Below, in pieces: positions 2,596-56,822 of a stretch of DNA of 64,000 nt; within the stretch, counting starts at the first letter, position 1; the number at the start of each line of letters is the position of its first letter. Made by a program: the position numbers and the translations under genes. Source of the stretch: Candidatus Saccharimonadota bacterium (GTDB taxonomy: Bacteria; Patescibacteriota; Saccharimonadia; Saccharimonadales; HK-STAS-PATE-42); contig DAISWL010000001.1 in the NCBI GenBank assembly GCA_036826375.1, positions 40,201 through 104,200 on the forward strand, written 5' to 3'. Under the pieces are notes generated by a model. It searched no databases. It was not told the origin of the DNA and saw only the letters and a list, made by a program, of their open reading frames with translations.

Positions 2596-4119
2596 TCAAG
2601 CATCTTTCTTGCGGTATTGCAAAGCTTCGGCTATGTGGTTAAGTTTAACATCTTCACTCTGTTCAAGGTCAGCAATTGTTCTGGCTACTTTAACCGCCTT
2701 CATGTAAGCACGGGCTGAGAGGTACATCTTATTGGCGTAATCATCTATAAATTGCTTAGCTTCAGGGGTGATTTGGGCTAGCTCGCGGGCATCTTTATTG
2801 CTCATGTGCGAATTAGTTTTCGAACCTGAACCGTAACGCTTTTTCTGAGCCTCTCTAGCTATTAAAACCCGAGTTAGTATCTCGGCTGTAGTTTCTTCAT
2901 CGCTAGCCTTTTTAAGCAGCTTTTCATGCTCTACTCTTTTAACAAAAACTATTAGATCTATCCTATCTAAAAGCGGACCTGAGATTTTTTTACTATAGTT
3001 TTGAACTTGAAAATTAGAGCAACTGCAATCGTGATCTTCATCTCCAAAGTAACCACAGGGGCACGGATTTTGGCTGGCAACCAACATAAAATCTGCCGGG
3101 AATTCTACGCTTTCATTAACCCTGGCAATTGAAACTATTCTATCTTCTAGCGGCTGGCGCAGAGCTTCAAGATTCTGACGAGGGTATTCTGGCAATTCAT
3201 CCAAGAATAGAACTCCGCGATGCGAAAGGCTAATTTCACCGGGTTTAGGTATTTTACCCCCGCCGATTAATGCAGCCCCTGAACTGGTGTGGTGCGGGGC
3301 GCGAAACGGTCGCTGGCTTAAAACTTCGGTAGATTTACCTGCCAAACTGTGCAATTTAGTAACTTCCACAATTTCATCTTGAGTAAGGGGCGGTAAAATC
3401 CCAACCAAAGCTCTGGCCATCATCGTTTTACCAGCTCCGGGAGGCCCACTCATCAAAACATTGTGATGCCCCGCCGCAGCAATTTCTAGCGCTCGTTTAG
3501 CTTGTTTCTGACCATGGATGTTACAAAAATCTATCACATTTTTGAAATCACTGAGTTCATCGTTAGGCTTATATTCCTCTGTTAAGCTTAACTTCTCAAT
3601 ATTCTTCAGATGCTTAAACACTTGCTTTAAGTTTTTAGCACCGTAAACTTTAACTCCACCTATAAGCGAAGCTTGTCCGGCATTTTCTTCCGGAACAATC
3701 AGATTAGTTTTACCAGATTTTTTAGCGATTTCAGCATAGCCGATGATTCCACGAACAGGCCTTAACGATCCATCAAGAGCTAACTCCCCTATTAGAAGAG
3801 TTTCCTCAACTGATTTGGGGTCGATTTCATCTGCGGCAATTAAGATTGCCACCGCCATTGGTAAATCGTAAGCAGTTCCATCTTTATAGATATCAGCCGG
3901 CGCTAAGTTTAAAGTGATATTTTTCTTCGGGAAGAAAAGATCACTGTTTTTAATAGCACTTCTGATTCTTTCTTTGCTCTCATCAATAGCCTTAGCGCCT
4001 AATCCGACAATTGTTATTCTTGGTTTTCCATTAGTGATGTCGCATTCAACTTCTATCAGCTGACCGTTGAAACCGATGTTTGCTCCGCTATAAACTAATG
4101 ATGTTCGTTTAATTGCCAT
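2596..4119 (-). CDS. YifB/ComM family Mg-chelatase-like AAA+ ATPase
   Basis: Lon-protease-like N-terminal domain, Walker A GPPGAGKT, and typical 507-aa length. Confidence 0.9.
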   Translation of the reverse strand: MAIKRTSLVYSGANIGFNGQLIEVECDITNGKPRITIVGLGAKAIDESKERIRSAIKNSDLFFPKKNITLNLAPADIYKDGTAYDLPMAVAILIAADEIDPKSVEETLLIGELALDGSLRPVRGIIGYAEIAKKSGKTNLIVPEENAGQASLIGGVKVYGAKNLKQVFKHLKNIEKLSLTEEYKPNDELSDFKNVIDFCNIHGQKQAKRALEIAAAGHHNVLMSGPPGAGKTMMARALVGILPPLTQDEIVEVTKLHSLAGKSTEVLSQRPFRAPHHTSSGAALIGGGKIPKPGEISLSHRGVLFLDELPEYPRQNLEALRQPLEDRIVSIARVNESVEFPADFMLVASQNPCPCGYFGDEDHDCSCSNFQVQNYSKKISGPLLDRIDLIVFVKRVEHEKLLKKASDEETTAEILTRVLIAREAQKKRYGSGSKTNSHMSNKDARELAQITPEAKQFIDDYANKMYLSARAYMKAVKVARTIADLEQSEDVKLNHIAEALQYRKKDA

Positions 4120-5344: not shown

Positions 5345-6079
5345 TTAAAAGCCCAAAACCTCTTGTTTGGCACGAATATCATCGATATCTTGTTGATGCT
5401 TAGCCCAATCTTTTGTCGAGCAAGATTCAGTAACCGCTAAGGTGCTTTTACGAGTACTCTTAACTAGGTACCTCATACGGTAAGGAACTCCATCGTTGCT
5501 CTTATAGTTGTAAACGGCACCCTGTAGGTTTATTTTTTGACCATCTTTCTTTTGAATTTCTACCGTAATTTCATCTAGTTTCTTAATGTTAGACTGGTCA
5601 TTGACATATGTTTTGAGCTGATTAACGCCATTATTTATAGCCTCTTTATTGCTCAAGAGAAGATTATTATAAGTACTGGCATAAGAAGCTCTGCAGGTAG
5701 AATCTGAAAGCTTAAACTCTCTTGCATAAGATCCGCCGTCAAATGACACATCCCATTTTGGGCCATAATAACTTTTATCTGACTTAAACGAAAAATAATA
5801 TTCAACATAGGCATCATCACCTATAATTTGAGAATCGGCAGAAAGTGATGACAGCTCGCTAGATCCGAGATTATCGCGTTGGCCGTAGAGCCATACTCCA
5901 AGAAAAATGAGGCCCGCTAAAATAATCAAAACCAAAGATACCAAGGATATAATTAAACCAGCTAAAAAACCACTCTTTTTCTTCGCTGGTTGATTTAACT
6001 GAGGACTATAGGGGCTTGGATTATTGTTATTTATACTACTGGGTGCATCTTGGTTAAATTGATTTTGTTGATTTTCCAT
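5345..6079 (-). CDS. hypothetical membrane-anchored protein
   Basis: Q/N/P-rich N-terminus, a single TM helix (FLAGLIISLVSLVLIILAGLIFLGVWLY), then a soluble domain. Confidence 0.6.
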   Translation of the reverse strand: MENQQNQFNQDAPSSINNNNPSPYSPQLNQPAKKKSGFLAGLIISLVSLVLIILAGLIFLGVWLYGQRDNLGSSELSSLSADSQIIGDDAYVEYYFSFKSDKSYYGPKWDVSFDGGSYAREFKLSDSTCRASYASTYNNLLLSNKEAINNGVNQLKTYVNDQSNIKKLDEITVEIQKKDGQKINLQGAVYNYKSNDGVPYRMRYLVKSTRKSTLAVTESCSTKDWAKHQQDIDDIRAKQEVLGF

Positions 6080-6391: not shown

Positions 6392-8086
6392 CTACATTCT
6401 ATCAACCACTTCAACTCCTAAAAGATTTAGACCTAGGCTCAAAGTATTAGCATACTTTCGCACCAAGCTTAAACGTAATTGTTGACGGCTATCTCCTATA
6501 ATGCGTGTTTTTTCATAAAATCTATTGAATTCTTGCGCTAATGAATAGAGGTAGTTAGCAATATAATGAGGCATCGCCTCCTTTGCTGATTTCCCAAATG
6601 CCTCGCCCCACTCACTAAGCTTAAGCACCAATAGTCTCTCCTCTTCATCGAAACTATTTCCGTCAATACTAAGGTTGAGATCTTGTTTTGTTGAATCTGC
6701 TTTTCTCATAATTGCCATCGCCCTCGCATAAGCATACTGCAAATATGGCCCACTATTGCCATTCAAACTAACTGATTCTTGAACGTCAAAGTTGATATCG
6801 CTGCCAACTCTGTACTTCAAAAATTCATATTTAATAGCTCCTAGCTGAATCACTTGAATCTGATTCTGATCACTATTATTAAGCTTAACCTTTTCTTCAA
6901 CCGAAGCAAGAACATCAACCGCCCGAGTAACATTGCCGAGGCGTGAGCTCATTTTTTTGCCATCGCTAAACTTAACGGTACCGTTAGCTAAATGATGATT
7001 AAGCCCTTTAAGTTTAGAATCTAACTGAGAAACCGCCGTGAAAACTACCTGCATATATTCTTTCTGATCGTTACCGGTGAGCAATAAACGCTGATCGAAA
7101 TTATAATCTTCAATTTCTTGAAATATTACTCCTACATCTTTAGTTTCATAGGTTGGTAAGCCTTCCGAGTTGATGAAAACCCTAGTGTGATTATTCAGAT
7201 TTTCACCGCCTTCAAAAATAATTGCTCCATCAGATTTTTTAAAGATGCCCGCCTCCAAACCTTCTTGAACTTTTGAGATGCCTAAATCTGCCACGCTACT
7301 CTCGGGATAATAATGCATTTGGTTCACCTTAAGCTTAGCGTAAAAAGCCTTGAAATAATCAAAGCTCCAATCACGGCAGGTAAAATAGATTACCGCCAGC
7401 GGATCATCTTTTTTGATTTCACCAGAATGAAACTGGTAGATTTTTTTATTGAGCTGTAAAATCTGCTCTTGGGCTTGATCTTCTTTATCGGCACTGGCTC
7501 CGTTAACATAGCATTGAGAGATGAAGTTGGCCCGCTCTATAGGATCTTTAGAAATGTCATTAAGCTTAAGCGGATGCTCCCCGCCAAGTTTCTGTAGAAT
7601 TCCCCACATCGCCCTAGCCACGTGACGACCAACATCTCCACCAAAACTAGTTCTGTTAACTCTTGCTCCGGCCGCCTCAAAGATTTTGGCAATGCTATCT
7701 CCCAATAAAGTGTTGTAAAGATGCCCAGTGTGAAGCTCTTTAAAAGCATTCGGACAGCTGTATTCAATAACCCAATTTTGGTTTTGATAAATTTGGGGCA
7801 AATCTTGATTTGCCAAGTTCCAAAGCAAGTCATCTTTAAGCTTAATATTGATGAAGCCCGGGCCAGCAATCTCAACCGAACTGATTGCTTTATGATCCTT
7901 AAGTTTATTGTAGATTTCCTCCGCTATCTCTCTAGGATTTTTTTTAATTTGACCAGCTAACTTCATAGCGATGTTAGTTGAAAAATCGCCAAATTGAGGA
8001 TCCGGCCTAGTTAGCTCTACATCGGCATCTAAGCTAAATAGTTGATTTACAATTTCAGAAATAATTAAGTTTAAATTTGCTTCCAT
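6392..8086 (-). CDS. argS: arginine--tRNA ligase
   Basis: Class I motifs HTGHLYN and KMSSRLG, with typical ArgRS domain order. Confidence 0.95.
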   Translation of the reverse strand: MEANLNLIISEIVNQLFSLDADVELTRPDPQFGDFSTNIAMKLAGQIKKNPREIAEEIYNKLKDHKAISSVEIAGPGFINIKLKDDLLWNLANQDLPQIYQNQNWVIEYSCPNAFKELHTGHLYNTLLGDSIAKIFEAAGARVNRTSFGGDVGRHVARAMWGILQKLGGEHPLKLNDISKDPIERANFISQCYVNGASADKEDQAQEQILQLNKKIYQFHSGEIKKDDPLAVIYFTCRDWSFDYFKAFYAKLKVNQMHYYPESSVADLGISKVQEGLEAGIFKKSDGAIIFEGGENLNNHTRVFINSEGLPTYETKDVGVIFQEIEDYNFDQRLLLTGNDQKEYMQVVFTAVSQLDSKLKGLNHHLANGTVKFSDGKKMSSRLGNVTRAVDVLASVEEKVKLNNSDQNQIQVIQLGAIKYEFLKYRVGSDINFDVQESVSLNGNSGPYLQYAYARAMAIMRKADSTKQDLNLSIDGNSFDEEERLLVLKLSEWGEAFGKSAKEAMPHYIANYLYSLAQEFNRFYEKTRIIGDSRQQLRLSLVRKYANTLSLGLNLLGVEVVDRM

Positions 8087-8113
8087 ATTATTTATTATAG
8101 CAGTTTAGTGATA

Positions 8114-8386
8114 TTAGGCTTGGTATCCGCCAATATTTTCTGCATCATTAAATCCGGCTGAATTCAAGATTTGTTTTGCCGCTTCTGCTCTGCCTCCGCT
8201 TCTGCAATAAACTTCTATTTTGGCATCTTTTGGCAGATTTGGTAATTCGCCCTGCATCATTAAGTTTAAATCAAAATTGATAGCGCCCTTATAGTGGCCT
8301 TGGTTGAATTCCTCAGGGTTTCGTACATCGATTAGAATAGTTTTCTGATTCGTATGATCTATACTTACCTTTTTAAATTTGAGCGT
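8114..8386 (-). CDS. single-domain rhodanese-like sulfurtransferase lacking a canonical start codon (ACG at the expected ATG position)
   Basis: Own translation: (T)LKFKKVSIDHTNQKTILIDVRNPEEFNQGHYKGAINFDLNLMMQGELPNLPKDAKIEVYCRSGGRAEAAKQILNSAGFNDAENIGGYQA*. The active-site loop CRSGGR is intact. There is no ATG/GTG/TTG between the upstream in-frame stop and the domain. Confidence 0.6.
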   Translation of the reverse strand, partial: TLKFKKVSIDHTNQKTILIDVRNPEEFNQGHYKGAINFDLNLMMQGELPNLPKDAKIEVYCRSGGRAEAAKQILNSAGFNDAENIGGYQA

Positions 8387-8402
8387 ACTTATTGCCTAAA
8401 AA

Positions 8403-9440
8403 TTAAGCTTCATTTATCACGTCAAAACCTTTTTTACTGCCGACCAAAGCCAGGCCATAAATTTTAGAATCAGGCTCAAGATTGTTCAACATCTTAGCAA
8501 CCTCATTGAAGCTAGCTCCTGAACCAACTGCATCATCAATGATTAAGATGTTCCTTCCGTTAACTTGTAAACTTTCACCCACAAATACTGTTTGATTAAT
8601 ATTAATTATTCTATCTTTAAGTTTTGATAGGGTTTTTTGAGGCGTGATAATATCTCCAACTATCTTGCTAAGCTTAATCCTTGGAATATTAATAGCTAAG
8701 TGATTGTTCAGATAACCCATTAGCTGTTGTTGTCTTTTTACGGTTGGGGGGATGAAACAAACTACCTCAATTTTATTAAGTTTAATGAAAGTATTTATTT
8801 TAGCCTCGGTTAAGCTTAGAATCTGCTTAAATAGCTTTTTATCTTGAGCTTGCTTAGCATAAAGAACCAGCTGACCTAAAGATGTTTTTCCAAATATCTC
8901 ATCTGCATAAAAATCTACATATGCAGTTTTTGCAAGGCAGTAATCAGCAAAGGTTTCTCGCATTTCTTTATCTGCAGAAATTAAGCCTGAAGAATCTTTA
9001 AACTTAAGATTATTTTTTTGTAAATCTTTATATTTTTTAAGATAAGTATCACGATCGTAATCTCTTTCTTGACACCAAAAAGTGAAAGCCTCATCGCCTT
9101 TCAGTAATTGGCCGGAGGGAGTTATTTGGATGTAATCGACCAAAACACTCTCTATCTTAGCACTGGTTGAACTAGTTTTAGGCTGATCAATTTTTATTGA
9201 ATAATACACTTTTGGAGGTTTACCGAACTTGGCTATTGCATTGGCGTCTAAAAGAGGTGTCAGATAGTGCTTATACAAAGCCTGACGGCTGATACCTAGC
9301 TCTTCTATTATCTGATTTACGCTAGCCTTGCCCCTTTTTTCAATGAAAGTTAGCAGGGTACCCACCCTATCACTATTTCTGTGGTTATCAAGATTAAGCA
9401 TCCCGCTGGTGCCATCTGTAGCTGTTTTTTGGATATTCAT
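8403..9440 (-). CDS. winged-HTH plus phosphoribosyltransferase-domain fusion protein (PurR-like / ComF-like)
   Basis: N-terminal HTH (SVNQIIEELGISRQALYKHY) and a C-terminal PRPP-binding loop (ILIIDDAVGSGASF). No ComF-type zinc finger. Confidence 0.7.
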   Translation of the reverse strand: MNIQKTATDGTSGMLNLDNHRNSDRVGTLLTFIEKRGKASVNQIIEELGISRQALYKHYLTPLLDANAIAKFGKPPKVYYSIKIDQPKTSSTSAKIESVLVDYIQITPSGQLLKGDEAFTFWCQERDYDRDTYLKKYKDLQKNNLKFKDSSGLISADKEMRETFADYCLAKTAYVDFYADEIFGKTSLGQLVLYAKQAQDKKLFKQILSLTEAKINTFIKLNKIEVVCFIPPTVKRQQQLMGYLNNHLAINIPRIKLSKIVGDIITPQKTLSKLKDRIININQTVFVGESLQVNGRNILIIDDAVGSGASFNEVAKMLNNLEPDSKIYGLALVGSKKGFDVINEA

Positions 9441-9448
9441 ATGTTAGT

Positions 9449-9486
9449 ATATTAGCACAGTTGACAGTTGATAATCAACTGTCAAC
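9449..9486 (-). promoter_or_regulatory. promoter plus 27-bp palindromic operator candidate of the HTH-PRT gene
   Basis: GTTGACAGTTGAT-a-ATCAACTGTCAAC lies at 9460-9486. The extended -10 TGcTAATAT has its hexamer at 9454..9449, only 8 nt before the ATG at 9440. Confidence 0.6.
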
Positions 9487-18517: not shown

Positions 18518-18844
18518 ATGAGCCTTAACACTCTAAATATAGGCCCGATAGAAGAGCTCGTGGGCCCCGGATCGGTTATCATTGATGGTGATGGCCGAGT
18601 AAAATATAAACCAGATACCATTAGCCTGGCAACTCACGATTTAGATGTGGCTAGGGGCAAGATGATTGTTAGTTTAGTCGTGTGGCCAGACGACCCAGAA
18701 GCGACAGCTGGCGCAATAAGACTTGTTGGTTCAGAACGATTAAAAGCTGTAGCTAGGCACGTTATGGGTGACGGGGAAATTAACCTAGATGCACCAGAAG
18801 GTACAGTAACTTATCTAAAACCAGCGCCGGATAGTCCAAATTAA
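18518..18844 (+). CDS. G+C-rich hypothetical protein (108 aa)
   Basis: ORF with strong SD (AGAAGGAG N6 ATG) and its own promoter. No family recognised. Confidence 0.6.
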   Translation: MSLNTLNIGPIEELVGPGSVIIDGDGRVKYKPDTISLATHDLDVARGKMIVSLVVWPDDPEATAGAIRLVGSERLKAVARHVMGDGEINLDAPEGTVTYLKPAPDSPN

Positions 18845-18902
18845 CCAATAAAATCTTTCTTGATTCCCCTTTTTACCCGCCAAACTACTATCTTGCTTAA
18901 GC

Positions 18903-19307
18903 TTAATTAGCTAACTCAACTTTTATTTGTTTATTGTTTTTATATTTTTCATATAAATTTTTATCAAAGGTTATAAACTTATCACAGTCACTTCTGATTG
19001 CCACCGCTAACTGCAGGGCATCTTCAAAATCATTACCCAAACAATTTTGATAAGCCCATTCAAAGTCTGTATCCGATAAACTATTCATATTAAAATCTGC
19101 CAAAAATTGTTGCAATATGTTCAGATCGTACACCTTGAGCCCAAAATGGATCACTAAATGCCCTGTCAAAGTTGATATATTGGCATTTCCATAATGTTTA
19201 CGCATTATTTCTTCGGCAGTTTTTTTAGATTTTCTATCTAAAATTAATTCCAGCAATACATTAGCATCTAAAAATATTGAATCTGAATTAGCTGTTATAT
19301 TTTTCAT
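18903..19307 (-). CDS. vapC: PIN-domain toxin VapC
   Basis: FLDANVLLE... start with the acidic PIN residues. Overlaps the upstream antitoxin gene. Confidence 0.8.
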   Translation of the reverse strand: MKNITANSDSIFLDANVLLELILDRKSKKTAEEIMRKHYGNANISTLTGHLVIHFGLKVYDLNILQQFLADFNMNSLSDTDFEWAYQNCLGNDFEDALQLAVAIRSDCDKFITFDKNLYEKYKNNKQIKVELAN

Positions 19308-19548
19308 TTAAAGATTCACCGTAAAGTTGCTTTATAGATTTACTATTATCGTACTTAAAATTTTTCCTGGGAGCAGAATTAAGAGCATCTAAGCCGGTAA
19401 CCGCCTTTTGTTCGCGCTTAGATTTTTGAGGTACCAACCTCACTGGGTTTGAGTTTCTATAAGTCAGCAGAAATTCTTCGCCGGCGCTAACCCTTGCTAA
19501 CACATCGCCCATATTTTTTCTGAATTCTAAGGCTGTAATTGTTTTCAT
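19288..19548 (-). CDS. Phd/YefM-type antitoxin (VapB partner)
   Basis: MKTITALEFRKNMGDVLARV... is a typical Phd/YefM N-terminus. 20-nt overlap with vapC. Confidence 0.75.
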   Translation of the reverse strand: MKTITALEFRKNMGDVLARVSAGEEFLLTYRNSNPVRLVPQKSKREQKAVTGLDALNSAPRKNFKYDNSKSIKQLYGESLNEKYNS

Positions 19549-19618
19549 GGTTTAAGTTTAACATGAAGTTTAACTTAAAGTCAATAATTTTATTCTTAAA
19601 CTTAAATTAGCACCTGCT

Positions 19619-20461
19619 CTAGTTTGATTTTGTCAGAGTTAACCAGTAGAATCTTTCTTGATTACCCTTTTTGCCGCTAATCTGATTATCACGCTTAAAC
19701 TTAATTACTAAGTTGTTAAGCTTGAGCCAATCTTCTAAATTTTTGAGAATTTGACGACGAATAGCACTGTTTTTAACTACGCCGGAGTTGAGATCGCTAG
19801 CCTGACCTTCAAATTGAGGTTTGGCCATAGCTAAAATATCGGGGTTAGAATTTGTAACTTTACTTAAGTTTAGTAAACTTGGCAAAATTTTAGTTAAAGA
19901 TATAAAACTGACATCAATTACAATTACATCAATTTTTTGGCTAGTTTTGAAATCTCTAATATCAGTTTTCTCATGCAATTCAACCTGTTCATTGAATCTG
20001 AGCTCGGGCACCATCTGATTGGTGCCAACTTCAACTGCAACTACTTTTTTAGCTCCGTTATTAAGTGCATATTGAGTGAAACCCCCGGTTGAGCTGCCAA
20101 CATCTAGCACAACTTTTCCGTTGAAGCTGAATTTGAAAGCCTCGGAGGCATCGGATAGCTTATCGCCAGCTCTTGAAACTGTTGAAGAATTTGCCCCAGC
20201 AACTAACTTAAGCTTAGCTATATGATTTTTATCAATAGTTTTTGAAGGCCTTAGTACTGGACGATTATCAAACTTAACTAAACTTCGCCGAACAAGATCG
20301 GCTCCGTGAGAACGTGAACGTGCCAAACCCAGAAGGAACAAGGCCTCATCCGCCCTTATGTAATCTGGGCTTGAACTATCCGTTTGATTAAAAACAGATT
20401 TACCTCGTTTCTTTTCAACATAAGTTTTATTAAGTTTAAGTTTACGGTAGCGATGTTTCAT
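19619..20461 (-). CDS. tlyA: TlyA family rRNA 2'-O-methyltransferase
   Basis: S4-like N-terminus (IRADEALFLLGLARSRSHGADLVRR) plus an FtsJ-type SAM domain (LDVGSSTGGFTQ). Confidence 0.85.
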   Translation of the reverse strand: MKHRYRKLKLNKTYVEKKRGKSVFNQTDSSSPDYIRADEALFLLGLARSRSHGADLVRRSLVKFDNRPVLRPSKTIDKNHIAKLKLVAGANSSTVSRAGDKLSDASEAFKFSFNGKVVLDVGSSTGGFTQYALNNGAKKVVAVEVGTNQMVPELRFNEQVELHEKTDIRDFKTSQKIDVIVIDVSFISLTKILPSLLNLSKVTNSNPDILAMAKPQFEGQASDLNSGVVKNSAIRRQILKNLEDWLKLNNLVIKFKRDNQISGKKGNQERFYWLTLTKSN

Positions 20462-32851: not shown

Positions 32852-33075
32852 GATCCTGAATCAAGTTCAGGATGACGCCCACCACCAGGTCATCCTGAAC
32901 TTGATTCAGGATCCCCCAAGAGAAGCCACTGCCCGTCATCCTGAACTTGATTCAGGATCCCCCAAGAGAAGCCACTGCCCGTCATCCTGAACTTGATTCA
33001 GGATCCCCCAAGAGAAACACACTGTCGTCATCCTGAACCGCCAGCTGGCGGTTGATTCAGGATCCCCCAAGAGAA
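32852..33075. repeat. REP-like hairpin array: one inverted plus four direct copies of a 25-nt palindromic unit (46-bp period)
   Basis: GTCATCCTGAACTTGATTCAGGATC units start at 32889, 32935, 32981 and 33027, with an inverted copy at 32852-32876. The fourth unit carries a nested palindrome CCGCCAGCTGGCGG (33038-33051) in its loop. Confidence 0.9.
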
Positions 33076-33102
33076 ACAGATCGAACTTAAGCTTAACCAA
33101 AT

Positions 33103-35897: not shown

Positions 35898-36098
35898 ACT
35901 TTTTTCTCCTTTGTGGATTTTTTATTATGTTTTTATTGTGTATACAATACTAGCATAAGCTCAATAAAATGTCAATATAAATTACGATTTAAACTACAAA
36001 TTACAATCATTATCCCCGAGAAACTTACTAGCTGATAATTATTAAGCTTAGCCTAGTAATTAAATCAAGGTGGCTGCCAGAGGTTAACCCGAAATGTA

Positions 36099-36203
36099 AA
36101 ACTTAAGCTTAATTGTCAATCATATAATCACGCTTTAGGTAAATAAAACTCCTCTTCCGGCGTCATACCCGGCGGGAACTTGGGCATGTACTTTTTTCTA
36201 TCA
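36099..36203. repeat. 105-bp direct repeat, copy 1
   Basis: 101/105 identical to 36766-36870. It begins at AAACTTAAGCTTAATTGTCAA. Confidence 0.9.
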
Positions 36204-36259
36204 GAGGCGTGCTTAGAGTTGAGATCTAATTATAAACTGCATTACACTTTATTTCGCCC

Positions 36260-36715
36260 CTAATTCATCTGTAACTGCCTGTCATTATGTTCTTTTGCCT
36301 CAGCAGCTCTTGCTGATAAGACCCTTTCGCGTAAATCTTCATCCGTAATTAAAACCCTAATAACTGCTTGTGGGTCTTGTAGATATCCATCTTTTTCTTT
36401 CTTCTTGTATGTGCTATAAGCACATAGCAAATCAGCCATTCGTTTGGTAAGGCCTTCCCTTTCCTGTTCTGGCGTAAGTTCCTCTCTAGCGCAATGGGGT
36501 GCTGATGATGACGTGTCCCCAAAGTTGGGCATTCCTAATATATCTAGAATTTCACCGCCATTTGTAGCGAATTCTTCTAATGTATAGTCTTCTGTTCTAT
36601 TAGATTCTGCTACTCCTGGTGGGTTTCCAATGGTGAATTTTTCATTCATAAAGAAAAAGAGGGGCTGGTCTATGGTTGTTTCTGGGCTCGGTTGTTTTTC
36701 GTTTGACATTATCAT
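36260..36715 (-). CDS. G+C-rich hypothetical protein (about 149-151 aa)
   Basis: ORF with SD AAGGAG and promoter TTGACA (36786..36781) N17 TATGAT (36763..36758). No family recognised. Confidence 0.6.
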   Translation of the reverse strand: MIMSNEKQPSPETTIDQPLFFFMNEKFTIGNPPGVAESNRTEDYTLEEFATNGGEILDILGMPNFGDTSSSAPHCAREELTPEQEREGLTKRMADLLCAYSTYKKKEKDGYLQDPQAVIRVLITDEDLRERVLSARAAEAKEHNDRQLQMN

Positions 36716-36765
36716 CTCCTTGTTAATACATGCTTTAATTCTTACTGTTACACAACAATCATAAC

Positions 36766-36870
36766 AAACTTAAGCTTAATTGTCAATCATATAATCACGC
36801 TTTAGGTAAATAAAACTCCTCCTCCGGCGTCATCCCCGGCGGGAACTTTGGCATATACTTTTTTCTATCA
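36766..36870. repeat. 105-bp direct repeat, copy 2 (carries the -35 of the 36715 ORF promoter)
   Basis: See copy 1. The two copies are spaced 667 bp apart. Confidence 0.9.
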
Positions 36871-36886
36871 CTAGCCTCGCTAAAAC

Positions 36887-37462
36887 TTAAACCTTTTTAA
36901 ACTTTTGAAAAATCAGCACCATCCCACCAACTATTGTATTTATAATTAGTAAGTAGATTACAAATACCTGATCAACAGATATCTCCCCGGAGGCCAATAA
37001 TGCGAATAACGCTCCGGCGGCCCCTGCAAGCCAGAACCAAAATACTTCGTCTCTTGGTTTCTTCCAAATTGCAACTATTGTTGGTAGGGTCGCAAAAAAA
37101 TCGGCCAAACAAATTAGCATAAGACCACTGAGGGCTTGGCCAGATATACTCCATACAATAAGGCTTAGAGATAGTAATAAATAACAAATTATATCAACTG
37201 GCCCCAAGCCACCCTTGCCGTTTTTTATTGAAACTACGCCAACCAAAATACATACGATGAGTTCGCTTAAGTTTAGCCAAATAGCCCCCGAACCAGATCT
37301 TAAGCTTAGTTGCTGGGCCAACGAAACTGCAAGCAATAGAATATACATCAACCTAGTAGCCCTCTCCGGTGTAACCGATCCAGAAATAATACTCCTTATA
37401 TAAGATATAGATGCCAGTATCGGGACTAAAAATGCCAACGTTCTGTATATTAATTCCGTCAT
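36887..37462 (-). CDS. polytopic membrane protein, function unknown
   Basis: About six hydrophobic helices. No motif recognised. Confidence 0.6.
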   Translation of the reverse strand: MTELIYRTLAFLVPILASISYIRSIISGSVTPERATRLMYILLLAVSLAQQLSLRSGSGAIWLNLSELIVCILVGVVSIKNGKGGLGPVDIICYLLLSLSLIVWSISGQALSGLMLICLADFFATLPTIVAIWKKPRDEVFWFWLAGAAGALFALLASGEISVDQVFVIYLLIINTIVGGMVLIFQKFKKV

Positions 37463-37520
37463 AATAAATCATCTTCCTTGTAGCAACAATTCTAGCATCT
37501 AGATTTTATCTTTCATAAAG

Positions 37521-38345
37521 TTGTCTAGATTTACGGACAACTATGTTATAATAAAGACTATGATTGAATCAGATTTTTCATCCATCAAACAAGTTTTGCA
37601 AGATCTAAAACTGAGCGATGAAGCCAGCGAGGTCTACATTTATCTCTGTAAAAATGGCCATTCTTCCGTTTTAAACATTGCGAGCAAAACTGGGATTAGC
37701 CGCACCCAGGTATATCGGCATTTAGATGCCCTCACTAAGCTTAATCTAGCAAGTGAAGAAAAACCCTATTGGGGAACCTACTTCTACGCCCTACCCATAT
37801 CTAACTTAAGCGGCGAGATTGAGCTTCAAAAACAGAGCCTAGAAGAAGCCTCACTTAAGCTTAAGGCCGCGGAAAGTGTTTTTGATAACCTATTCCAGAA
37901 CAATAATTCCGCTCAAACCATAAATTACCGAGGGGTTTCTGGCCTTAAGCAGGCTTTGTGGAACATTACAAAAGCCGAAAAAGAATACAAAGTTTTTGAG
38001 GTTGATCATATCTCTAACCTGTTAGATCTTAAGTTTAGCAAAAGTATACGCCAGAAGCAGATTGATAAACAAATTAAAAGTTACGATTTATCTAACCAAA
38101 AGCTTCATAAAAAAGAAGAGCTAGAGCCATTTGATCCAAATTTCAGCAAACTCAAGTTTATAAGGCCAGAGGTTTTAAAAATTAAGTTTGAAATTATTAT
38201 CTATAACGATATCATTACCCTGATTGATTACTTCAAGCCGGAACCTGTTGCCATGGAAATCAAAAACCCAGCCCTAAACTTAATGATGAACCAAATGCAC
38301 GATGCCTTCTGGGCCATGGCCGAGGAGGTTGAGTGGGAAGGCTAG
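37521..38345 (+). CDS. TrmB family transcriptional regulator
   Basis: N-terminal wHTH (LSDEASEVYIYLCKNGHSSVLNIASKTGISRTQVYRHLDAL) with a TrmB-like C-terminal domain. Confidence 0.7.
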   Translation: MSRFTDNYVIIKTMIESDFSSIKQVLQDLKLSDEASEVYIYLCKNGHSSVLNIASKTGISRTQVYRHLDALTKLNLASEEKPYWGTYFYALPISNLSGEIELQKQSLEEASLKLKAAESVFDNLFQNNNSAQTINYRGVSGLKQALWNITKAEKEYKVFEVDHISNLLDLKFSKSIRQKQIDKQIKSYDLSNQKLHKKEELEPFDPNFSKLKFIRPEVLKIKFEIIIYNDIITLIDYFKPEPVAMEIKNPALNLMMNQMHDAFWAMAEEVEWEG

Positions 38346-38416
38346 GTTTTTAAGCTTAGGCTTAAGATCTCAGCAACAAGAGAACTAAACCAATGCATTT
38401 ATATTTTTTGCTTGGT

Positions 38417-38611
38417 TCAGAATTTGCAATATGCATATTTTGCATATTGCTCTTTAGGCCATCTTTCTATCTTCCAACTATCCGGAAATTCCGGATAGTT
38501 GGATCTTACTTCAATCTCTCTTATGTAAATAGCGGCCTTCGCATGATCGTCCACCATCCCCACCGCTTGCATAAATGCGTAGCAAATTGTTGGTCCAACA
38601 AAGTCTTGCAT
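38417..38611 (-). pseudogene. 3'-end fragment of a DNA-3-methyladenine glycosylase I (tag) gene
   Basis: It starts ..FVGPTICYAFMQAVGMVDDH, matching the C-terminus of the intact tag at 39480-40043. 38553-38604 is 50/52 identical to 39517-39568. Confidence 0.7.
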
Positions 38612-38634
38612 TATATGTAGACCTTTGGTATACT
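38606..38634 (+). promoter_or_regulatory. promoter TTGCAT-N17-TATACT of the membrane-protein/PadR cassette
   Basis: TTGCAT lies at 38606-38611 and TATACT at 38629-38634. A strong SD (AAGGAGG) lies before 38673. Confidence 0.55.
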
Positions 38635-38672
38635 ACGTTAGGTAAGAAATAATTTGAATAAGGAGGTTACGT

Positions 38673-39125
38673 ATGTCAAAAGAACTCAAAAACACTCAAG
38701 AAATCAACTCTAAATCAATACTACTGCCCTATTTTATATGCCTAATTATTGGATGCTTACTTTTGCAGACATTTATCTCTTTTAACGATCATGAAATATC
38801 TCTGGCCTCCAACATCCTACTAGCCTTAGTTGCGCTATCTAGCGCGCCTTTTCTTATAGCGAACAAAACTAAACTTAATAAAATAAGATTTGGGTACTTA
38901 GTTTTAAGCTTAGGAACTTTTGTAATAGTAAACGGAAGTTACCATCTTCATGCCTACTACTTGGCGGTAATAAAATCACCAGCACTAGTTAGCGGAGCTG
39001 ATTATTTACCGATTAATAATGGTTGGTTTGGTCTTATTTTTGGAATGCCAGGATTTTGGGCGCTAGGTTTAATTGTTCATATAATAGCTAGTGTAGTCCT
39101 CAGAGGCTTTGAAGAAAGAAGATAG
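38673..39125 (+). CDS. small polytopic membrane protein
   Basis: Four hydrophobic helices, upstream of and adjacent to a PadR gene. Confidence 0.6.
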   Translation: MSKELKNTQEINSKSILLPYFICLIIGCLLLQTFISFNDHEISLASNILLALVALSSAPFLIANKTKLNKIRFGYLVLSLGTFVIVNGSYHLHAYYLAVIKSPALVSGADYLPINNGWFGLIFGMPGFWALGLIVHIIASVVLRGFEERR

Positions 39126-39133
39126 CGTATTTT

Positions 39134-39472
39134 ATGCTCTCAGAAATTGAAGAATATATCGAGGAACTAGCTCAAAGCTGGTCAGAAGTGTACAAAAAAA
39201 GTATCACCACTTACTTACTGCTAAGTATTTTAGAGAAATCAGAAATGTGGAGCAAACAAATCCACGAGGAGTTGAGCGCACTTTCTTTTGGTAAGCTAGC
39301 TCTAGATGGAAAAAGCCTCCACAGAACCCTAAGAAGGCTCGAAAAACAAAGCTTGGTTACGTATAGATTAGAATCCGGTGATAAAACCGGCGCAAAACGC
39401 AAAATCTACTCAATAACCCCAGAAGGCAGTCATCTGCTAAGAACCGTCAAAAATAAATATTTAATTGCTTAG
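39134..39472 (+). CDS. PadR family transcriptional regulator
   Basis: wHTH pattern (TYLLLSILEKSEMWSKQIHEEL...SLHRTLRRLEKQSLV). Confidence 0.8.
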   Translation: MLSEIEEYIEELAQSWSEVYKKSITTYLLLSILEKSEMWSKQIHEELSALSFGKLALDGKSLHRTLRRLEKQSLVTYRLESGDKTGAKRKIYSITPEGSHLLRTVKNKYLIA

Positions 39473-39479
39473 GTAAGCA

Positions 39480-40043
39480 CTAGCTTTTAAAGTAGCACGT
39501 ATGCTCGTGGTCATTAACCATCCCCACCGCCTGCATAAATGCGTAGCAAATTGTTGGGCCAACAAAGTTGAATCCTGCCGATTTTAAAGCTTTGCTCATA
39601 GCTTCAGATTCTGGGCTCTGGGTTGGAATATCACTTAAACTTAAGTTTAGATTATTAGATTTTACAGGGGCGAAGCTCCATAGAAACTCAGAAAAATTAG
39701 TTCCCTGACCCTTAAGCTTAATGTAGGCCTGAGCGTTTTGAATAGCCGATTCTATTTTTTTACGATTCCTAACAATTCCAGAATTTTGCATTAAACTTAA
39801 TACTTCGCCCTCACCGATCGCGGCCATCTTTTTGGCATCAAAATTATAGAAAGCCTTATCATAATCATCAAATCTTTTAAGCACCGTTAGCCAACTGAGG
39901 CCCGCTTGAGCTCCTTCTAAAATCAACATCCTAAATAGTTCTTTAGGATCTCGCACTTCCCTACCCCAAACCTCATCATGATACTGAATATAGAGCGGGT
40001 CGCTTAGGCACCAGGTGCATCTTTTTAATTCTGGGTGATTCAT
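39480..40043 (-). CDS. tag: DNA-3-methyladenine glycosylase I
   Basis: MNHPELKRCTWCLSDPLYIQYHDEVWG... The zinc ligands are present at both termini. 187 aa from the ATG at 40043; the track ORF starts further upstream. Confidence 0.9.
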   Translation of the reverse strand: MNHPELKRCTWCLSDPLYIQYHDEVWGREVRDPKELFRMLILEGAQAGLSWLTVLKRFDDYDKAFYNFDAKKMAAIGEGEVLSLMQNSGIVRNRKKIESAIQNAQAYIKLKGQGTNFSEFLWSFAPVKSNNLNLSLSDIPTQSPESEAMSKALKSAGFNFVGPTICYAFMQAVGMVNDHEHTCYFKS

Positions 40044-40098
40044 ATTCTGTTTAATTCTAACATTATTCAGAGATATTACGCTTAAATAAATATATACC

Positions 40099-40127
40099 TT
40101 GCATTGCAATGCACATGGTGATACAAT
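40099..40127 (+). promoter_or_regulatory. promoter TTGCAT-N17-TACAAT overlapped by a 14-bp perfect palindrome (PadR operator candidate)
   Basis: TGCATTGCAATGCA lies at 40100-40113, the -35 at 40099-40104 and the -10 at 40122-40127. Confidence 0.6.
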
Positions 40128-40150
40128 CTGTATCAGAAAGGTAAAATATA

Positions 40151-40489
40151 ATGGATGATGACAATATAAAAAGTTTTGAAACCCAGCTTCGAAAAGGCCT
40201 GCTAACTTACTGTATCTTAAGCTTAGCGCTTGGTGGCCAAGTTTATACCTCTAAAATTATTGAGGAACTTAAATCTGCCAATATGATAGTTACCGAAGGT
40301 ACCCTCTACCCTCTTCTCAACCGTCTTTCAAAGAATGGTTTTCTGAACCATGTTTGGGAAGAATCTAGTGGCGGTCCGCCAAAGAAGTATTATTCTATCA
40401 GTAAAGATGGCCGGCAATACCTAAAAAAGCTAGATTTAGCCTGGAAGAACATCTCAGTTAGTATAAATAAAATAGCAAAGGAGAAATAA
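40151..40489 (+). CDS. PadR family transcriptional regulator
   Basis: GTLYPLLNRLSKNGFL and ...KKYYSISKDG motifs. Confidence 0.85.
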   Translation: MDDDNIKSFETQLRKGLLTYCILSLALGGQVYTSKIIEELKSANMIVTEGTLYPLLNRLSKNGFLNHVWEESSGGPPKKYYSISKDGRQYLKKLDLAWKNISVSINKIAKEK

Positions 40490-40491
40490 TT

Positions 40492-42021
40492 ATGAAGAAA
40501 ACTGAAAATATAAGCCTTGCATCTACCCCTGTAATCATAGATTCTGATGCTTATTCAAATTTAGATAAGTATCTTAAAAAGATTGACCTTAAGTTTAATA
40601 AAGATGAACTCGATGAACTTAAAAAAGATGTCGAAGTTCGCGTTTTAGAGCTTTTATACGAACAAGGCTGGAAGCCAGAAAGAAGCATATCTGCAGCTCA
40701 GGTTGAAAGAGTTATTGATCAAATTGGCGAAATTGAACCAGATAATGATAATTCAGAAATAAACACCGAACAGAAAACCAAGCTTAATAAAAAACTTTTT
40801 AGAGATCAGAAGAACGGTCAGATATTTGGAGTTTGTCAGGGCTTAGGAGAATATTTTGGCATAGATCCTGTTTGGCTGAGATTGCTATTTATTATTCTGA
40901 CATTTGTTACAAGTGGTGCATTTATTATTATCTATCTCGTAGCCGGATTTATTATTCCAGAAGCCAAAACTGAATTTAATCGTGCTCATTTAAGAGGTGA
41001 ACCCCAAGACCTAGTATCTGTACTCAGTAATATTAATGATGAAGAAAAAACTCAGCGGTTTTTAAAAAATACCAATAATATCTTAAGAGGGATAACAAGG
41101 ATTGCGCAGAAGGTTATAGTTACTATAATTAAGTTGTTTTTACATTTTATTAGATTCGTTTGTTTAGCAGCGGCAATATTCATGATTTTTTGGCCAGTGA
41201 TATTTATATGGTCCGATAATTACCAAAAAGAGTTAAATATCTTCCTAACACCCCTTAACTTAAGCGAAAAAATCGGTTTTTCGTTGCTACTACTGAGTGT
41301 CGTATCCTTATTAATATTAGCCTTTTTAGGTCTAACTAAACTACTTAGTGGTAGCAAAAATAGATACAAATTTAGGCTCGCCCCTGCATTATTTACCATT
41401 CTGGCGCTAACTATGATACAACTACCTCCTGCTGTTTTGTGGGGCAAAAACTTTAGTTCCAGGAACCAAGACTGGGAAGTTATGAGTAAAAGATATTTCA
41501 GCCCAGTGCAATATAAAAATAACTTAAGCCAAACTAAACTTAATATAGAAGCCAATGGCAAATTTACCTACGCCATAGAATTTTCAGATGATAATACATT
41601 TTCCCTAGAGGCAAATGTTTATAAAAATCTAAGTGATGATTTTAGGCTTGGAATAGTTAACCAGAATGAGGCCAAGCTAACCTCTCCTACATATACCAAG
41701 GTATTACAAACACGTGATGATATCTGTTTAACATGTAGCCAGGCTAGATTTTCCCATGAAGATGGATCGATAGCTGGATTAATTACGCTACGTGTACCCA
41801 GAACCTTAAAGACCATAGATATTAGCAACAACGGAACTGATTTTACGGTTAATACTCAATTTATTGTTAGCCCAGATGTGCTCAATAGCGGATTAATATC
41901 GGGTATAAATAATGATAATGGCGACTATGAAACGAACCAGTTTATAATTATTAATCAAAGAACTAATGAAGTTATCTATCCAAAATTTATGACTAACAAG
42001 GGCATCGAAATCATTCACTGA
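40492..42021 (+). CDS. PspC domain-containing membrane protein
   Basis: LFRDQKNGQIFGVCQGLGEYFGIDPVWLRLLFII is a PspC domain, followed by several TM helices. Confidence 0.8.
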   Translation: MKKTENISLASTPVIIDSDAYSNLDKYLKKIDLKFNKDELDELKKDVEVRVLELLYEQGWKPERSISAAQVERVIDQIGEIEPDNDNSEINTEQKTKLNKKLFRDQKNGQIFGVCQGLGEYFGIDPVWLRLLFIILTFVTSGAFIIIYLVAGFIIPEAKTEFNRAHLRGEPQDLVSVLSNINDEEKTQRFLKNTNNILRGITRIAQKVIVTIIKLFLHFIRFVCLAAAIFMIFWPVIFIWSDNYQKELNIFLTPLNLSEKIGFSLLLLSVVSLLILAFLGLTKLLSGSKNRYKFRLAPALFTILALTMIQLPPAVLWGKNFSSRNQDWEVMSKRYFSPVQYKNNLSQTKLNIEANGKFTYAIEFSDDNTFSLEANVYKNLSDDFRLGIVNQNEAKLTSPTYTKVLQTRDDICLTCSQARFSHEDGSIAGLITLRVPRTLKTIDISNNGTDFTVNTQFIVSPDVLNSGLISGINNDNGDYETNQFIIINQRTNEVIYPKFMTNKGIEIIH

Positions 42022-42703
42022 TTTCATACTCCCCTATTTTAGTGCGACGGAGTTCGCTCATATACGCCCCACATTTTAGAATCTGACCAATATCGTTAAT
42101 CAAACTACGGATGTAGGTCCCACTCGAAACATGAACCTTAAACTTAAGCTTAGGGTAAGCATATTCCAAGATTTCTAGAGAATAAATTTCAACTTGACGA
42201 GGCTTAAGCTTAGGAGTCTCACCTTTTCTGGCTAAATCGTAGGCTCTTTTGCCATCAACTTTTATAGCACTGAAAATTGGCGGGGTCTGTTCAATTTTGC
42301 CAACAAAAGATTGGCATGCCCGCTCAAGCTCTCCCCTCTCCAACTGGAGAGGGGCTGGGGGTGAGGTTGAATCGGAAGGCAGAGTTGTTAATTCCCCTTC
42401 ACCATCATAAGTTGTAGAAACTAAACCTAGCGTTGCCTCGGCAATATAAACTTTATCTTTTTTGAGGAATGTATCGGCCTGTTTGGTCATTTTACCAGTT
42501 AGCAGAATTAGTAGACCCGTTGCTATCGGATCCAAAGTCCCAGTGTGACCAACCTTAATTTTGCGCCCAGATTGCACCTTAAGCTTAGCGCGAACTACAG
42601 ATACAGGGTAAAAAGATGATTTCCCCTTTGGCTTATCAAATAAAACAATTCCCTCTTCGGGAATCTCAATTTGATTAACATTTTCCATATTTACAACTTG
42701 CAT
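42011..42703 (-). CDS. truB: tRNA pseudouridine(55) synthase
   Basis: GHTGTLDPIATG catalytic motif and ...PPIFSAIKVDGKRAYDLAR. Confidence 0.9.
   Translation of the reverse strand: MQVVNMENVNQIEIPEEGIVLFDKPKGKSSFYPVSVVRAKLKVQSGRKIKVGHTGTLDPIATGLLILLTGKMTKQADTFLKKDKVYIAEATLGLVSTTYDGEGELTTLPSDSTSPPAPLQLERGELERACQSFVGKIEQTPPIFSAIKVDGKRAYDLARKGETPKLKPRQVEIYSLEILEYAYPKLKFKVHVSSGTYIRSLINDIGQILKCGAYMSELRRTKIGEYEISE
42333..42366. repeat. 34-nt GC-rich palindromic element inside truB (in frame)
   Basis: CCCCTCTCCAACTGGAGAGGGGCTGGGGGTGAGG is 32/34 identical to the intergenic copy at 56789-56822. Confidence 0.85.
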
Positions 42704-56023: not shown

Positions 56024-56704
56024 TTACCTCTTAAACCTTGTTGCCGATCTATCGAAAATAACTTTGCCATCTTCGAGATTAATAATTCTTCGTTGTAATT
56101 TACTGACAATCTCTTGATTATGAGTTGTCATGATCACGGTAGTACCGTACTGATTAATCTTCTCTAGAATCGAAACTATATCCCAGCTATGTTTAGGATC
56201 TAGGTTACCAGTTGGCTCATCAGCTACTAAAATTTTAGGCTGCCTTACAACAGCTCTGGCGATTGCCACACGCTGCTGTTCACCTCCACTAAGTTCGTGA
56301 GGGAAACTCTTTTCTTTTCCTTTTAAGCCTACTAACTCTATAACTTTTGGGACGGTTCGTTTAATCTCTTTATTAGTCATTCCAGATACCTCCAGGGCGA
56401 AGGCAACATTTTCAAATACATTTCTGGTTGGAAGGAGTTTGAAATCTTGGAACACTACCCCTATTTTACGTCTGAGCAGGGGTATATTTCTATCCGGTAG
56501 CTTATCGTAATCTATTCCGCCAACTATAATTTTGCCAAAAGATGGTTTTTCCTCGCGAGTCAAAAGCTTCAGAAAAGTAGATTTCCCCGCCCCGCTAGTT
56601 CCTACCATAATAACGAATTCTTTAGGTTCTATCCTAATACTGACGTTATCTAAAGCTTTGCTTTTTTTATTGTATTGCTTGGTCACTTGATCAAATGTAA
56701 TCAT
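56024..56704 (-). CDS. ftsE: cell division ATP-binding protein FtsE
   Basis: Walker [10 protein letters not shown], signature LSGGEQQR, and FtsE length. Confidence 0.9.
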
Positions 56705-56788: not shown

Positions 56789-56822
56789 CCCCTCTCCAAC
56801 TGGAGAGGGGTTAGGGGTGAGG
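56789..56822. repeat. intergenic copy of the 34-nt GC-rich palindromic element
   Basis: CCCCTCTCCAACTGGAGAGGGGTTAGGGGTGAGG. A second G-rich motif gcgggaggctgggagggg follows at about 56875-56895. Confidence 0.85.

Follow-up and report, generated by a model that had tools for sequence, protein, structure and literature searches.

Between tag, the gene for DNA-3-methyladenine glycosylase I, and a TrmB-like regulator gene in a Candidatus Saccharimonadota bacterium, a short cassette of two genes, encoding a small membrane protein and a PadR-family regulator, is enclosed by two copies of a segment from the end of tag. The locus lies in a 64,000-nucleotide (nt) stretch of contig DAISWL010000001.1, referred to here as the window; coordinates are window positions except where a related locus is named (labels of the form L0xx), and two further Tag proteins are given as P0001 and P0004. 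Intact tag occupies 39480-40043 on the minus strand and encodes 187 residues that match Pfam Adenine_glyco (8.6e-71) over profile positions 1-175 of 177, a full-length domain. The protein aligns with residues 2-179 of E. coli TAG (1LMZ) and places C9, H22, H179 and C183 at the Cys/His/His/Cys positions of 1LMZ, which we take to be the zinc ligands of TAG. Its nearest named homolog, at 85% identity, comes from a "Candidatus Saccharimonadales bacterium" metagenome-assembled genome; a scan of genome contigs with Tag turned up no relative above 52% identity, its matches being to Proteobacteria and other groups. The last codons of the gene (39480-39507, minus strand) encode EHTCYFKS and the stop, here called tail A, and the segment that precedes them (39508-39568, minus strand), encoding (N)FVGPTICYAFMQAVGMVNDH, is the most conserved DNA stretch of the gene, about 90% conserved even against L048, whose Tag is 71% identical.

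The first-pass annotation of this DNA had reported that a 52-bp piece of the tag end is present twice and that the two copies enclose a two-gene cassette with a promoter of its own; both statements withstand closer inspection. A search for the 52-nt repeat with at most three mismatches finds exactly two sites, 38553-38604 and 39517-39568 (0.00 expected from 100 shuffles), identical at 50 of 52 positions and differing at two. Ungapped likeness extends to 61 nt (38544-38604 and 39508-39568, 90% identity, spacing 964 nt), and the longest perfect block shared by the copies is 26 nt. The right edge of the repeat is sharp, with identity lost abruptly at 38604/38605, where the tag fragment meets the cassette promoter without homology; the left edge is gradual, fading where two different C-terminal tails diverge. 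Microhomology at the junction may amount to at most about 2 nt (GT) when L048 is used as a distant proxy for a parent.

Both cassette genes lie on the plus strand, between the copies. The first (38673-39125) encodes a small multi-pass membrane protein of 150 residues, recognised by its hydrophobic segments, that has no Pfam, NCBIfam or PADLOC match; its homologs among 5.8 billion proteins form only two other clusters, both from the same population, and it is 33% identical to the syntenic protein of L048. The second (39134-39472), convergent with tag and ending with its stop 7 nt from the tag stop, encodes a 112-residue PadR-family regulator (Pfam PadR 1.7e-09; 38 bits against a cut-off of 27) that is 59% identical to its L048 ortholog and 28% identical to a second PadR encoded at 40151-40489. 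The promoter (38606-38634) consists of TTGCAT at 38606-38611, a 17-nt spacer and TATACT at 38629-38634, followed by the ribosome-binding site AAGGAGG at 38660-38666 and the ATG. Its −35 element, correctly placed by the annotation, starts 1 nt after 38605; the promoter is identical in L044 and reads TTGATT-17-TATACT in the distant L048, and the ACCTTTGGTATACTAC region is conserved. A consensus scan missed it because the −35 element matches at only 3 of 6 positions. From family membership and gene order, the cassette is most likely an autoregulated PadR operon that controls the small membrane protein. Megablast of 36000-42000 against a phage collection gave no match.

The second copy of the segment (38544-38604, minus strand) belongs to a dead piece of tag, as had been proposed. 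A 64-residue open reading frame (ORF) spans it (38417-38611, minus strand) and was rejected as a real gene: only its residues 3-27 are Tag-like, the remainder being out-of-frame tail and terminator, and the counterpart in L044 is disrupted differently. The match is confined to 25 residues at profile positions 150-174, with a frameshift and an Arg at the last ligand position, far from the full-length domain of the intact protein. By alignment with L042, the copy corresponds to the tag 3' end of that locus, and 38511-38543 (minus strand, including the TGA stop at 38511-38513) is the decayed tail B of a resident tag allele. Relative to L042, tail B has suffered a 1-nt deletion and a TGY to CGC change (Cys to Arg) at a zinc-ligand position; the fragment reads DDHA and then runs out of frame, and with the frame restored it gives DDHAEGRYLHKRD and a stop, compared with DDHAGGCYLYKRD and a stop in L042. 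The decayed tail, DDHA.G(C>R)YLHKRD and stop, is of the kind found in L042 and L051.

The native downstream flank of this resident allele (38360-38510) follows, in which 38426-38360 aligns with L042 6605-6671, directly downstream of the L042 tag. Just beyond the tail B stop stands a perfect hairpin with 15-bp arms (38473-38503), terminator-like on the plus strand (RNA fold −23.8 kcal/mol, z = −5.55) and preserved downstream of the intact L042 gene. It was probably the terminator that originally separated tag from the convergent TrmB-like gene. The latter (37560-38345, plus strand; Pfam TrmB) is the ancestral convergent neighbour of tag and is syntenic in L042, L044, L048, L051, L052 and L084. 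A scan of metagenome contigs with a TrmB alignment found only relatives of 24-45% identity, none with tag adjoining TrmB, and an Rfam search of 37500-40500 found no RNA family. A palindrome read by eye between TrmB and the hairpin, ATGCATATTTTGCAT at 38431-38445, could be a PadR operator.

Relatives without the cassette, which the first-pass annotation had recommended looking for, were found in L042 (Tag 85%) and L084 (Tag 67%). In L084 the order is truB, tag, TrmB-like gene, with tag and the TrmB-like gene convergent, 10 nt apart and nothing between them, which appears to be the simplest, ancestral-type arrangement of the interval. In L042 tag is directly followed by DNA that in the window comes after the fragment. 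The L042 gene matches the intact window tag only as far as 39508; its last 60 or so coding bases, stop, hairpin and following DNA match the fragment side instead (window 38602-38478 aligns with L042 6478-6603 at 84%), and L042 6478-6536 aligns with both window copies. The fragment has a different tail and aligns with the tag end and flank of L042; rather than a recent duplicate of the end of the intact gene, it is thus the decayed 3' end of a cassette-less-type tag allele, still joined to the hairpin and the TrmB-like gene. The idea in the first-pass annotation that the copies are a duplication made at insertion must be given up: they are two alleles, one with tail A, the other with decayed tail B.

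Might the fragment instead be what is left of a whole second tag, a tandem duplicate or an imported block, that once stood between cassette and TrmB and later lost its 5' part? That it represents a diverged allele is compatible with an imported second gene. Yet it is contiguous with the native terminator hairpin and TrmB flank, just as the gene end is in cassette-less relatives, and no 5' or middle sequence of tag is found beyond 38605; moreover, a terminal piece only (44-105 nt) is also what survives at the tlyA, TrmB and L052 tag loci described below, unlike the outcome of independent random decay. We regard such an origin as unlikely. The independent decayed tag paralog named by the annotation as the competing source of the fragment is not what the comparison reveals, the fragment being orthologous to the resident gene end of cassette-less relatives.

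The tails of intact Tag proteins sort in the same way. C-termini fall into types, with NDHEHTCYFKS in the window and NDHEHSCYFKS in L044, both cassette-bearing, and NDHVVGCEFKSD, of the same type as tail A, in the cassette-bearing L048; among loci without the cassette, the L042 protein ends in the DDHAGGCYLYKRD already given and that of L051 in DDHAKECFLHKRD, each followed by the stop. Tail A is thus co-inherited with the cassette. P0001 is 97% identical to the window Tag, yet has the tail of P0004, the 79% allele; this tail swap appears to mark a crossover at the conserved tag segment.

More than 20 independent contigs with the same Tag (JGI, ENA, Logan; sewage and other metagenomes) all carry the cassette and both copies, and the divergent L044 (Tag 79%) has the same junction, ...TACATATAATGCAA/GACTTT..., the slash marking the joint. 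The L044 fragment has lesions of its own, a 1-nt deletion inside the conserved segment and an altered Tyr codon, and runs into a different tail, DDHTEECYLAKKD and a stop, before the insertion of a Fic gene. When the window is compared with L044, mismatches are sparse only from about 39600 to 38551, a stretch that comprises segment, tail A, padR, membrane-protein gene, promoter and segment; they are dense in the tag body, and past 38550 the two sequences are no longer homologous. A shared junction between dissimilar flanks means that the junction was made once and is old, and that the unit has since moved or, equivalently, its flanks have been replaced. Exchange appears to have taken place at the two conserved-segment copies or close to them. 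Hypervariability of the locus within the population might raise the concern that two strains were mixed in a metagenome assembly. Against this, the same unique promoter/fragment junction recurs in those more than 20 contigs from different samples and assemblers, L044 has it with lineage-specific mutations, and a false join made within a 52-nt repeat could not give rise to a second copy, so that an artefact of this kind deserves next to no credence.

Two further observations belong to L044. Its Fic/RhuM gene (7532-8497), just beyond the tag fragment, matches the PADLOC candidate defence family PDC-S23 (5.7e-103). Gene conversion that would keep the fragment tag-like found no support: between the window and L044 the fragment has diverged at about 5 of 52 positions, near the neutral expectation at 12-14% divergence.

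In L048 (Tag 71%) a cassette orthologous to that of the window stands behind tag with no fragment beside it, from which it follows that the association of cassette and tag is old and that the fragment is not an obligatory by-product. This genome did not gain the cassette recently, a divergent allele (L044) sharing the junction and L048 having an orthologous cassette. The cargo of the tag-TrmB interval differs among the loci: MetK in L051, an FG-GAP gene in L052, an NYN gene in L042, the cassette plus Fic/RhuM in L044 and, in L048, nothing but the cassette. Identity among the window, L042 and L044 is 100% over 44000-41000 and 65-92% across 41000-38300; with the neighbouring 3 kb identical and the rest divergent, these are alleles of one recombining population, not separate species. 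The hypervariable stretch spans the 5' end of a PspC-domain gene, its padR, tag and the cassette, and L042 and L044 share one divergent allele across 41000-40100. At 40100-40113 a palindrome, TGCATTGCAATGCA, read by eye, overlaps what is likely the promoter of the divergent padR-pspC operon and could be a PadR operator.

We put at roughly 60% the probability that the locus is a recombination scar in the tag-TrmB interval, an accessory-gene hot spot of a recombining Saccharimonadales population, produced by one homologous crossover and one illegitimate joint and then spread by homologous recombination, with no dedicated recombinase. Two versions of the interval would have been joined: one in which tag with tail A abuts the PadR stop with its operon, and a cassette-less one running from tag with tail B through the hairpin to the convergent TrmB-like gene. 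The homologous exchange would have taken place within tag, where the 52-61-nt segment encoding FVGPTICYAFMQAVGMV.DH is best conserved at the DNA level, and the illegitimate joint at 38604/38605, linking the start of the segment to the cassette promoter. The product would be a complete tag (body, segment and tail A), with the resident segment and tail B stranded beyond the cassette and since decayed; that the intact gene survives follows from the homologous anchor being tag itself. A cassette donor recombining into an empty allele, or the reverse, would give the same product. Ordinary homologous recombination would then have moved the unit with its two segment copies into other tag alleles, or replaced its flanks. 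Delivery would most plausibly have been by natural transformation.

The absence of a dedicated recombinase from this account agrees with the gene content. As the first-pass annotation had stated for the window, no integrase or transposase domain is found by Pfam in any ORF of at least 90 residues in its 64 kb, and the same is true of the gene tables of the related loci. The exchange points read from the identity mosaic lie in and beside the conserved tag segment, where a homologous anchor is present. The window also encodes RecO and a ComM/YifB-type protein (2596-4119, minus strand; Pfam Mg_chelatase 1.8e-91, Mg-chelatase-like AAA+). The ComM/YifB family includes the transformation branch-migration helicase ComM. 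Cultivated Saccharibacteria have been reported to be naturally competent (PMC10633639, PMC10187176).

The arrangement of repeat, cassette and repeat recurs. In L052 an unrelated FG-GAP gene separates the tag segment (5499-5564) from a second copy of it (7877-7942, 79%), and the fragment has its own tail, DDYTQDCEFKAA and a stop, abutting the TrmB stop; because its upstream edge is unlike that of the window, this was an independent event. The TrmB 3' end has likewise been copied in L042 and L020, where stretches of it 67-72 nt long stand on either side of an NYN gene (L042 7232-8177; L020 1-1100). L020 belongs to a 99.6% strain in which most of TrmB and part of the upstream 191-residue gene seem to be missing, through deletion or as a contig-end artefact.

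Three further cases lie in the window, where the first-pass annotation had seen the same logic at tlyA, rhodanese and the 36.1-36.9 kb locus; recurrence at all three was found, with the correction that the rhodanese locus duplicates a 5' segment, not a gene end. At tlyA (18834-19675, minus strand), tlyA itself (19619-20461) is followed by vapB/phd (19288-19548), a PIN-domain vapC (18903-19307) and a tlyA 3' fragment from 18834 to about 18900, which is a diverged allele with its own tail, LIKLKQDSSLAGKKGNQERFYWLIWTIRRWF and a stop. All contigs that encode the exact TlyA protein carry vapBC, and no empty tlyA site was found among them. Toxin-antitoxin pairs stand on both sides of tlyA, a ParE/YafQ-type gene with a DUF6364 partner upstream and phd/PIN downstream. 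At the rhodanese locus (8255-9570, minus strand), an 88-nt repeat (77%) of the N-terminal segment surrounds a gene (8403-9440) for a 345-residue helix-turn-helix and phosphoribosyltransferase (PRTase) protein that matches PADLOC PsyrT at 1.3e-14. The region 8114-9600 comprises an N-terminal fragment at about 9483-9600, the gene resembling PsyrT/ShosT defence toxins and then the rhodanese copy, which has an in-frame stop near its start (MKLNF, stop, AIS...) and may be inactivated.

The third case is intergenic: a 105-nt direct repeat (36099-36203 and 36766-36870, 96%) brackets a 151-residue ORF (36260-36715, minus strand) over 36099-36870. The 667-bp unit, made of the ORF and one 105-nt copy, is present in the window, L003 and L005 and absent, with a single repeat copy, from L002/L012, L001/L011 and L016. 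L012 and the window differ by only 4 single-nucleotide polymorphisms in 18 kb (0.02%), two of them within 500 nt of the indel, and in the window 4 of 105 positions (3.8%) distinguish one repeat copy from the other. Such divergence between copies in near-identical strains means that one copy came with the insert, or that the pair is old; a fresh duplication in situ does not fit.

These figures bear on the class known as insertion with long target duplication (Nobusato et al. 2000; Furuta, Abe & Kobayashi 2010, PMC2853133), in which an insert smaller than 20 kb has on each side a direct repeat, more than 30 bp long and variable in length, and a related genome holds one sequence to which both repeats align; the inserts lack mobility genes, and some repeats overlap gene 3' ends. 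Most examples come from naturally competent species. The class was described for restriction-modification (RM) genes, in Proteobacteria and a few further phyla, and its authors, who did not establish a mechanism, suggest that RM enzymes break the DNA (PMC2853133). The tag locus resembles it in size (61 nt at 90% or 52 nt at 96%, spacing 964 nt), in the presence of the cassette here and its absence from L042 and L084, and in having no mobility gene among window ORFs (by Pfam) or in the gene tables of related loci. It differs in cargo, a membrane protein and PadR here, and toxin-antitoxin, PRTase, NYN, Fic and FG-GAP genes elsewhere in this lineage of the Candidate Phyla Radiation (CPR), rather than restriction or modification genes. 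It differs also in the source of the repeats: where the class has both copies from the recipient, the cassette-side copy at tag is co-inherited with the cassette.

A true target duplication, in which foreign DNA is joined to the widely staggered ends of a broken tag and fill-in synthesis duplicates 52-61 bp, would share the operational criteria of PMC2853133, namely repeats longer than 30 bp, no mobility genes and a single-copy target in relatives. Such an event would require an insert that starts with tail A in frame and functional, and hence one from a homologous source; the copies run into different allelic tails; and at 36.1-36.9 kb the copies are 3.8% apart compared with 0.02% between genomes. 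We consider this route distinctly unlikely.

Integrative elements that insert at the 3' end of a gene and supply a replacement end are known, such as phage 21 in icd and tRNA-targeting islands. The tag locus is like them in that the target is kept intact by a supplied end with the displaced end beyond the insert, and it could be the remnant of such an element, the copies being attL and attR and the integrase encoded elsewhere or lost. An element-supplied gene end with the original end displaced is indeed the product of gene-end-targeting elements, and two different inserts (window/L044 and L052) use the same tag segment. The fit fails in other respects: no integrase or transposase is found in the 64-kb window or at any related locus; the insert is only about 900 bp, with two ordinary genes; L048 has an orthologous cassette at the same place without any repeat; the repeats at five loci (tag, tlyA, rhodanese, 36.1 kb and TrmB) are unrelated, 44-105 nt long and without a shared att core apart from a genome-wide 8-mer treated below; and the junction positions of the window and L052 differ. 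Site-specific integration is on this evidence very unlikely. An integron-type cassette also seems unlikely, there being neither IntI nor an attC-like element common to the repeat pairs.

Closer parallels exist among processes that need no recombinase. Homology-facilitated illegitimate recombination in natural transformation, reportedly described in 2002 by de Vries and Wackernagel and by Prudhomme et al., has in common with the tag locus one homologous anchor and one non-homologous joint, with DNA added beside a conserved gene. It is usually described with deletion of recipient DNA, whereas the tag locus retains a gene-end fragment. Its joints have 3-10 nt of microhomology; the tag joint is sharp, and the comparison with the distant L048 would allow about 2 nt there. 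The minimal mobile elements of Neisseria, attributed to Saunders and Snyder in 2002, are said to be cassettes swapped between conserved flanking genes by transformation and homologous recombination. Alike are the fixed tag-TrmB interval, which holds varied cargo within one population, and the crossovers in conserved flanks; a duplicated gene-end fragment, however, is no part of the definition of minimal mobile elements, and the tag scar would record an additional illegitimate step. By analogy, homology-facilitated illegitimate recombination may have come first at the tag locus, and exchange as in minimal mobile elements afterwards. We know of no previous description of such events in this lineage.

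Several points weigh against a scar of one crossover and one illegitimate joint. The microhomology proposed for the joint is only about 2 nt, read against the distant proxy L048 in place of the parental sequences. The direction of the event, cassette into empty allele or the reverse, is indistinguishable, and no excision product or circular form has been seen. L042 is no direct precursor, its tail B region being 84% identical to the window fragment. The independent junctions of the window/L044 and of L052 fall within about 20 nt of each other, which is not obviously expected of random joints; this clustering may reflect survivorship (long duplications are unstable and short ones cannot recombine) or an unrecognised site preference. 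The competence reports concern cultivated Saccharibacteria and not this organism, and the recombinase scan of this genome covers 64 kb.

A possible clue to the first joint is the 8-mer TAAG[C/T]TTA, which is hugely over-represented across the whole window in both orientations, at 3.3 sites/kb overall, 3.0/kb in genes and 5.2/kb between genes. The palindrome TAAGCTTA has 85 sites against about 2 expected, and TAAGTTTA and TAAACTTA occur 61 and 68 times against about 3.3 expected each. The 8-mer is equally enriched in relatives with Tag at 66-76% (L048, L051, L052, L083 and L084); the enrichment is absent from distant Saccharimonadales-like loci and from unrelated bacteria. The abundant word TTAAGCTTAA resembles a word of the DNA-uptake-sequence type, and a literature search found no paper linking DNA uptake sequences with Patescibacteria. 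The 8-mer lies at the junction-side edge of the repeats at 36.1 kb (36099/36766), tlyA (18898/19696) and TrmB/NYN (L042 7303/8177), and nearly at the edge of the rhodanese repeat; it is at neither tag junction. By a hand estimate, the chance of finding it at a repeat edge is about 6% per edge. It may provide dispersed short homology for the illegitimate joint.

Tentatively, these patterns could reflect a clade-wide, recombinase-free movement of cassettes in which short, well-conserved segments of core genes serve as portable homology arms, the first joint often forms at TAAG[C/T]TTA, possibly also an uptake signal, and spread is by transformation and RecA-dependent recombination. Toxin-antitoxin and defence-like genes are among the cassettes concerned. 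We would place well below even odds on such a route. If true, the route would explain "long target duplications" as one copy from the donor and one from the recipient.

Little is understood of how the CPR, or Patescibacteria, acquire and trade accessory genes; their genomes are tiny, and few mobile elements can be recognised in them. The tag locus and its parallels in the same 64 kb present cassettes that have gene-end relics at their borders and vary within one population, and the allelic origin of the copies lends support to general recombination without a recombinase, probably after transformation, as a routine source of gene-content change in Saccharibacteria. Two alleles as the source of the two copies would also be a testable explanation for insertion with long target duplication, a class described without a settled mechanism. 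Taken alone, the tag locus is of modest interest, an old scar with a dead fragment beside an intact repair gene; the wider pattern and the 8-mer are more interesting.

Other features of the window merit mention. A heliorhodopsin gene (12432-13223, minus strand; Pfam PF18761, 1.6e-85) is present in this Saccharimonadales genome. In the gap between 32749 and 33537, four tandem 46-nt units (32889-33085; two identical, then 83% and 67%) each contain the inverted repeat CCTGAA...TTCAGG. Finally, a 34-nt GC-rich palindromic element, CCCCTCTCCAACTGGAGAGGGG..., occurs twice at 94% identity, once inside the truB ORF range (42333-42366 within 42011-42703) and once (56789-56822) just upstream of the gene at 56024-56704.

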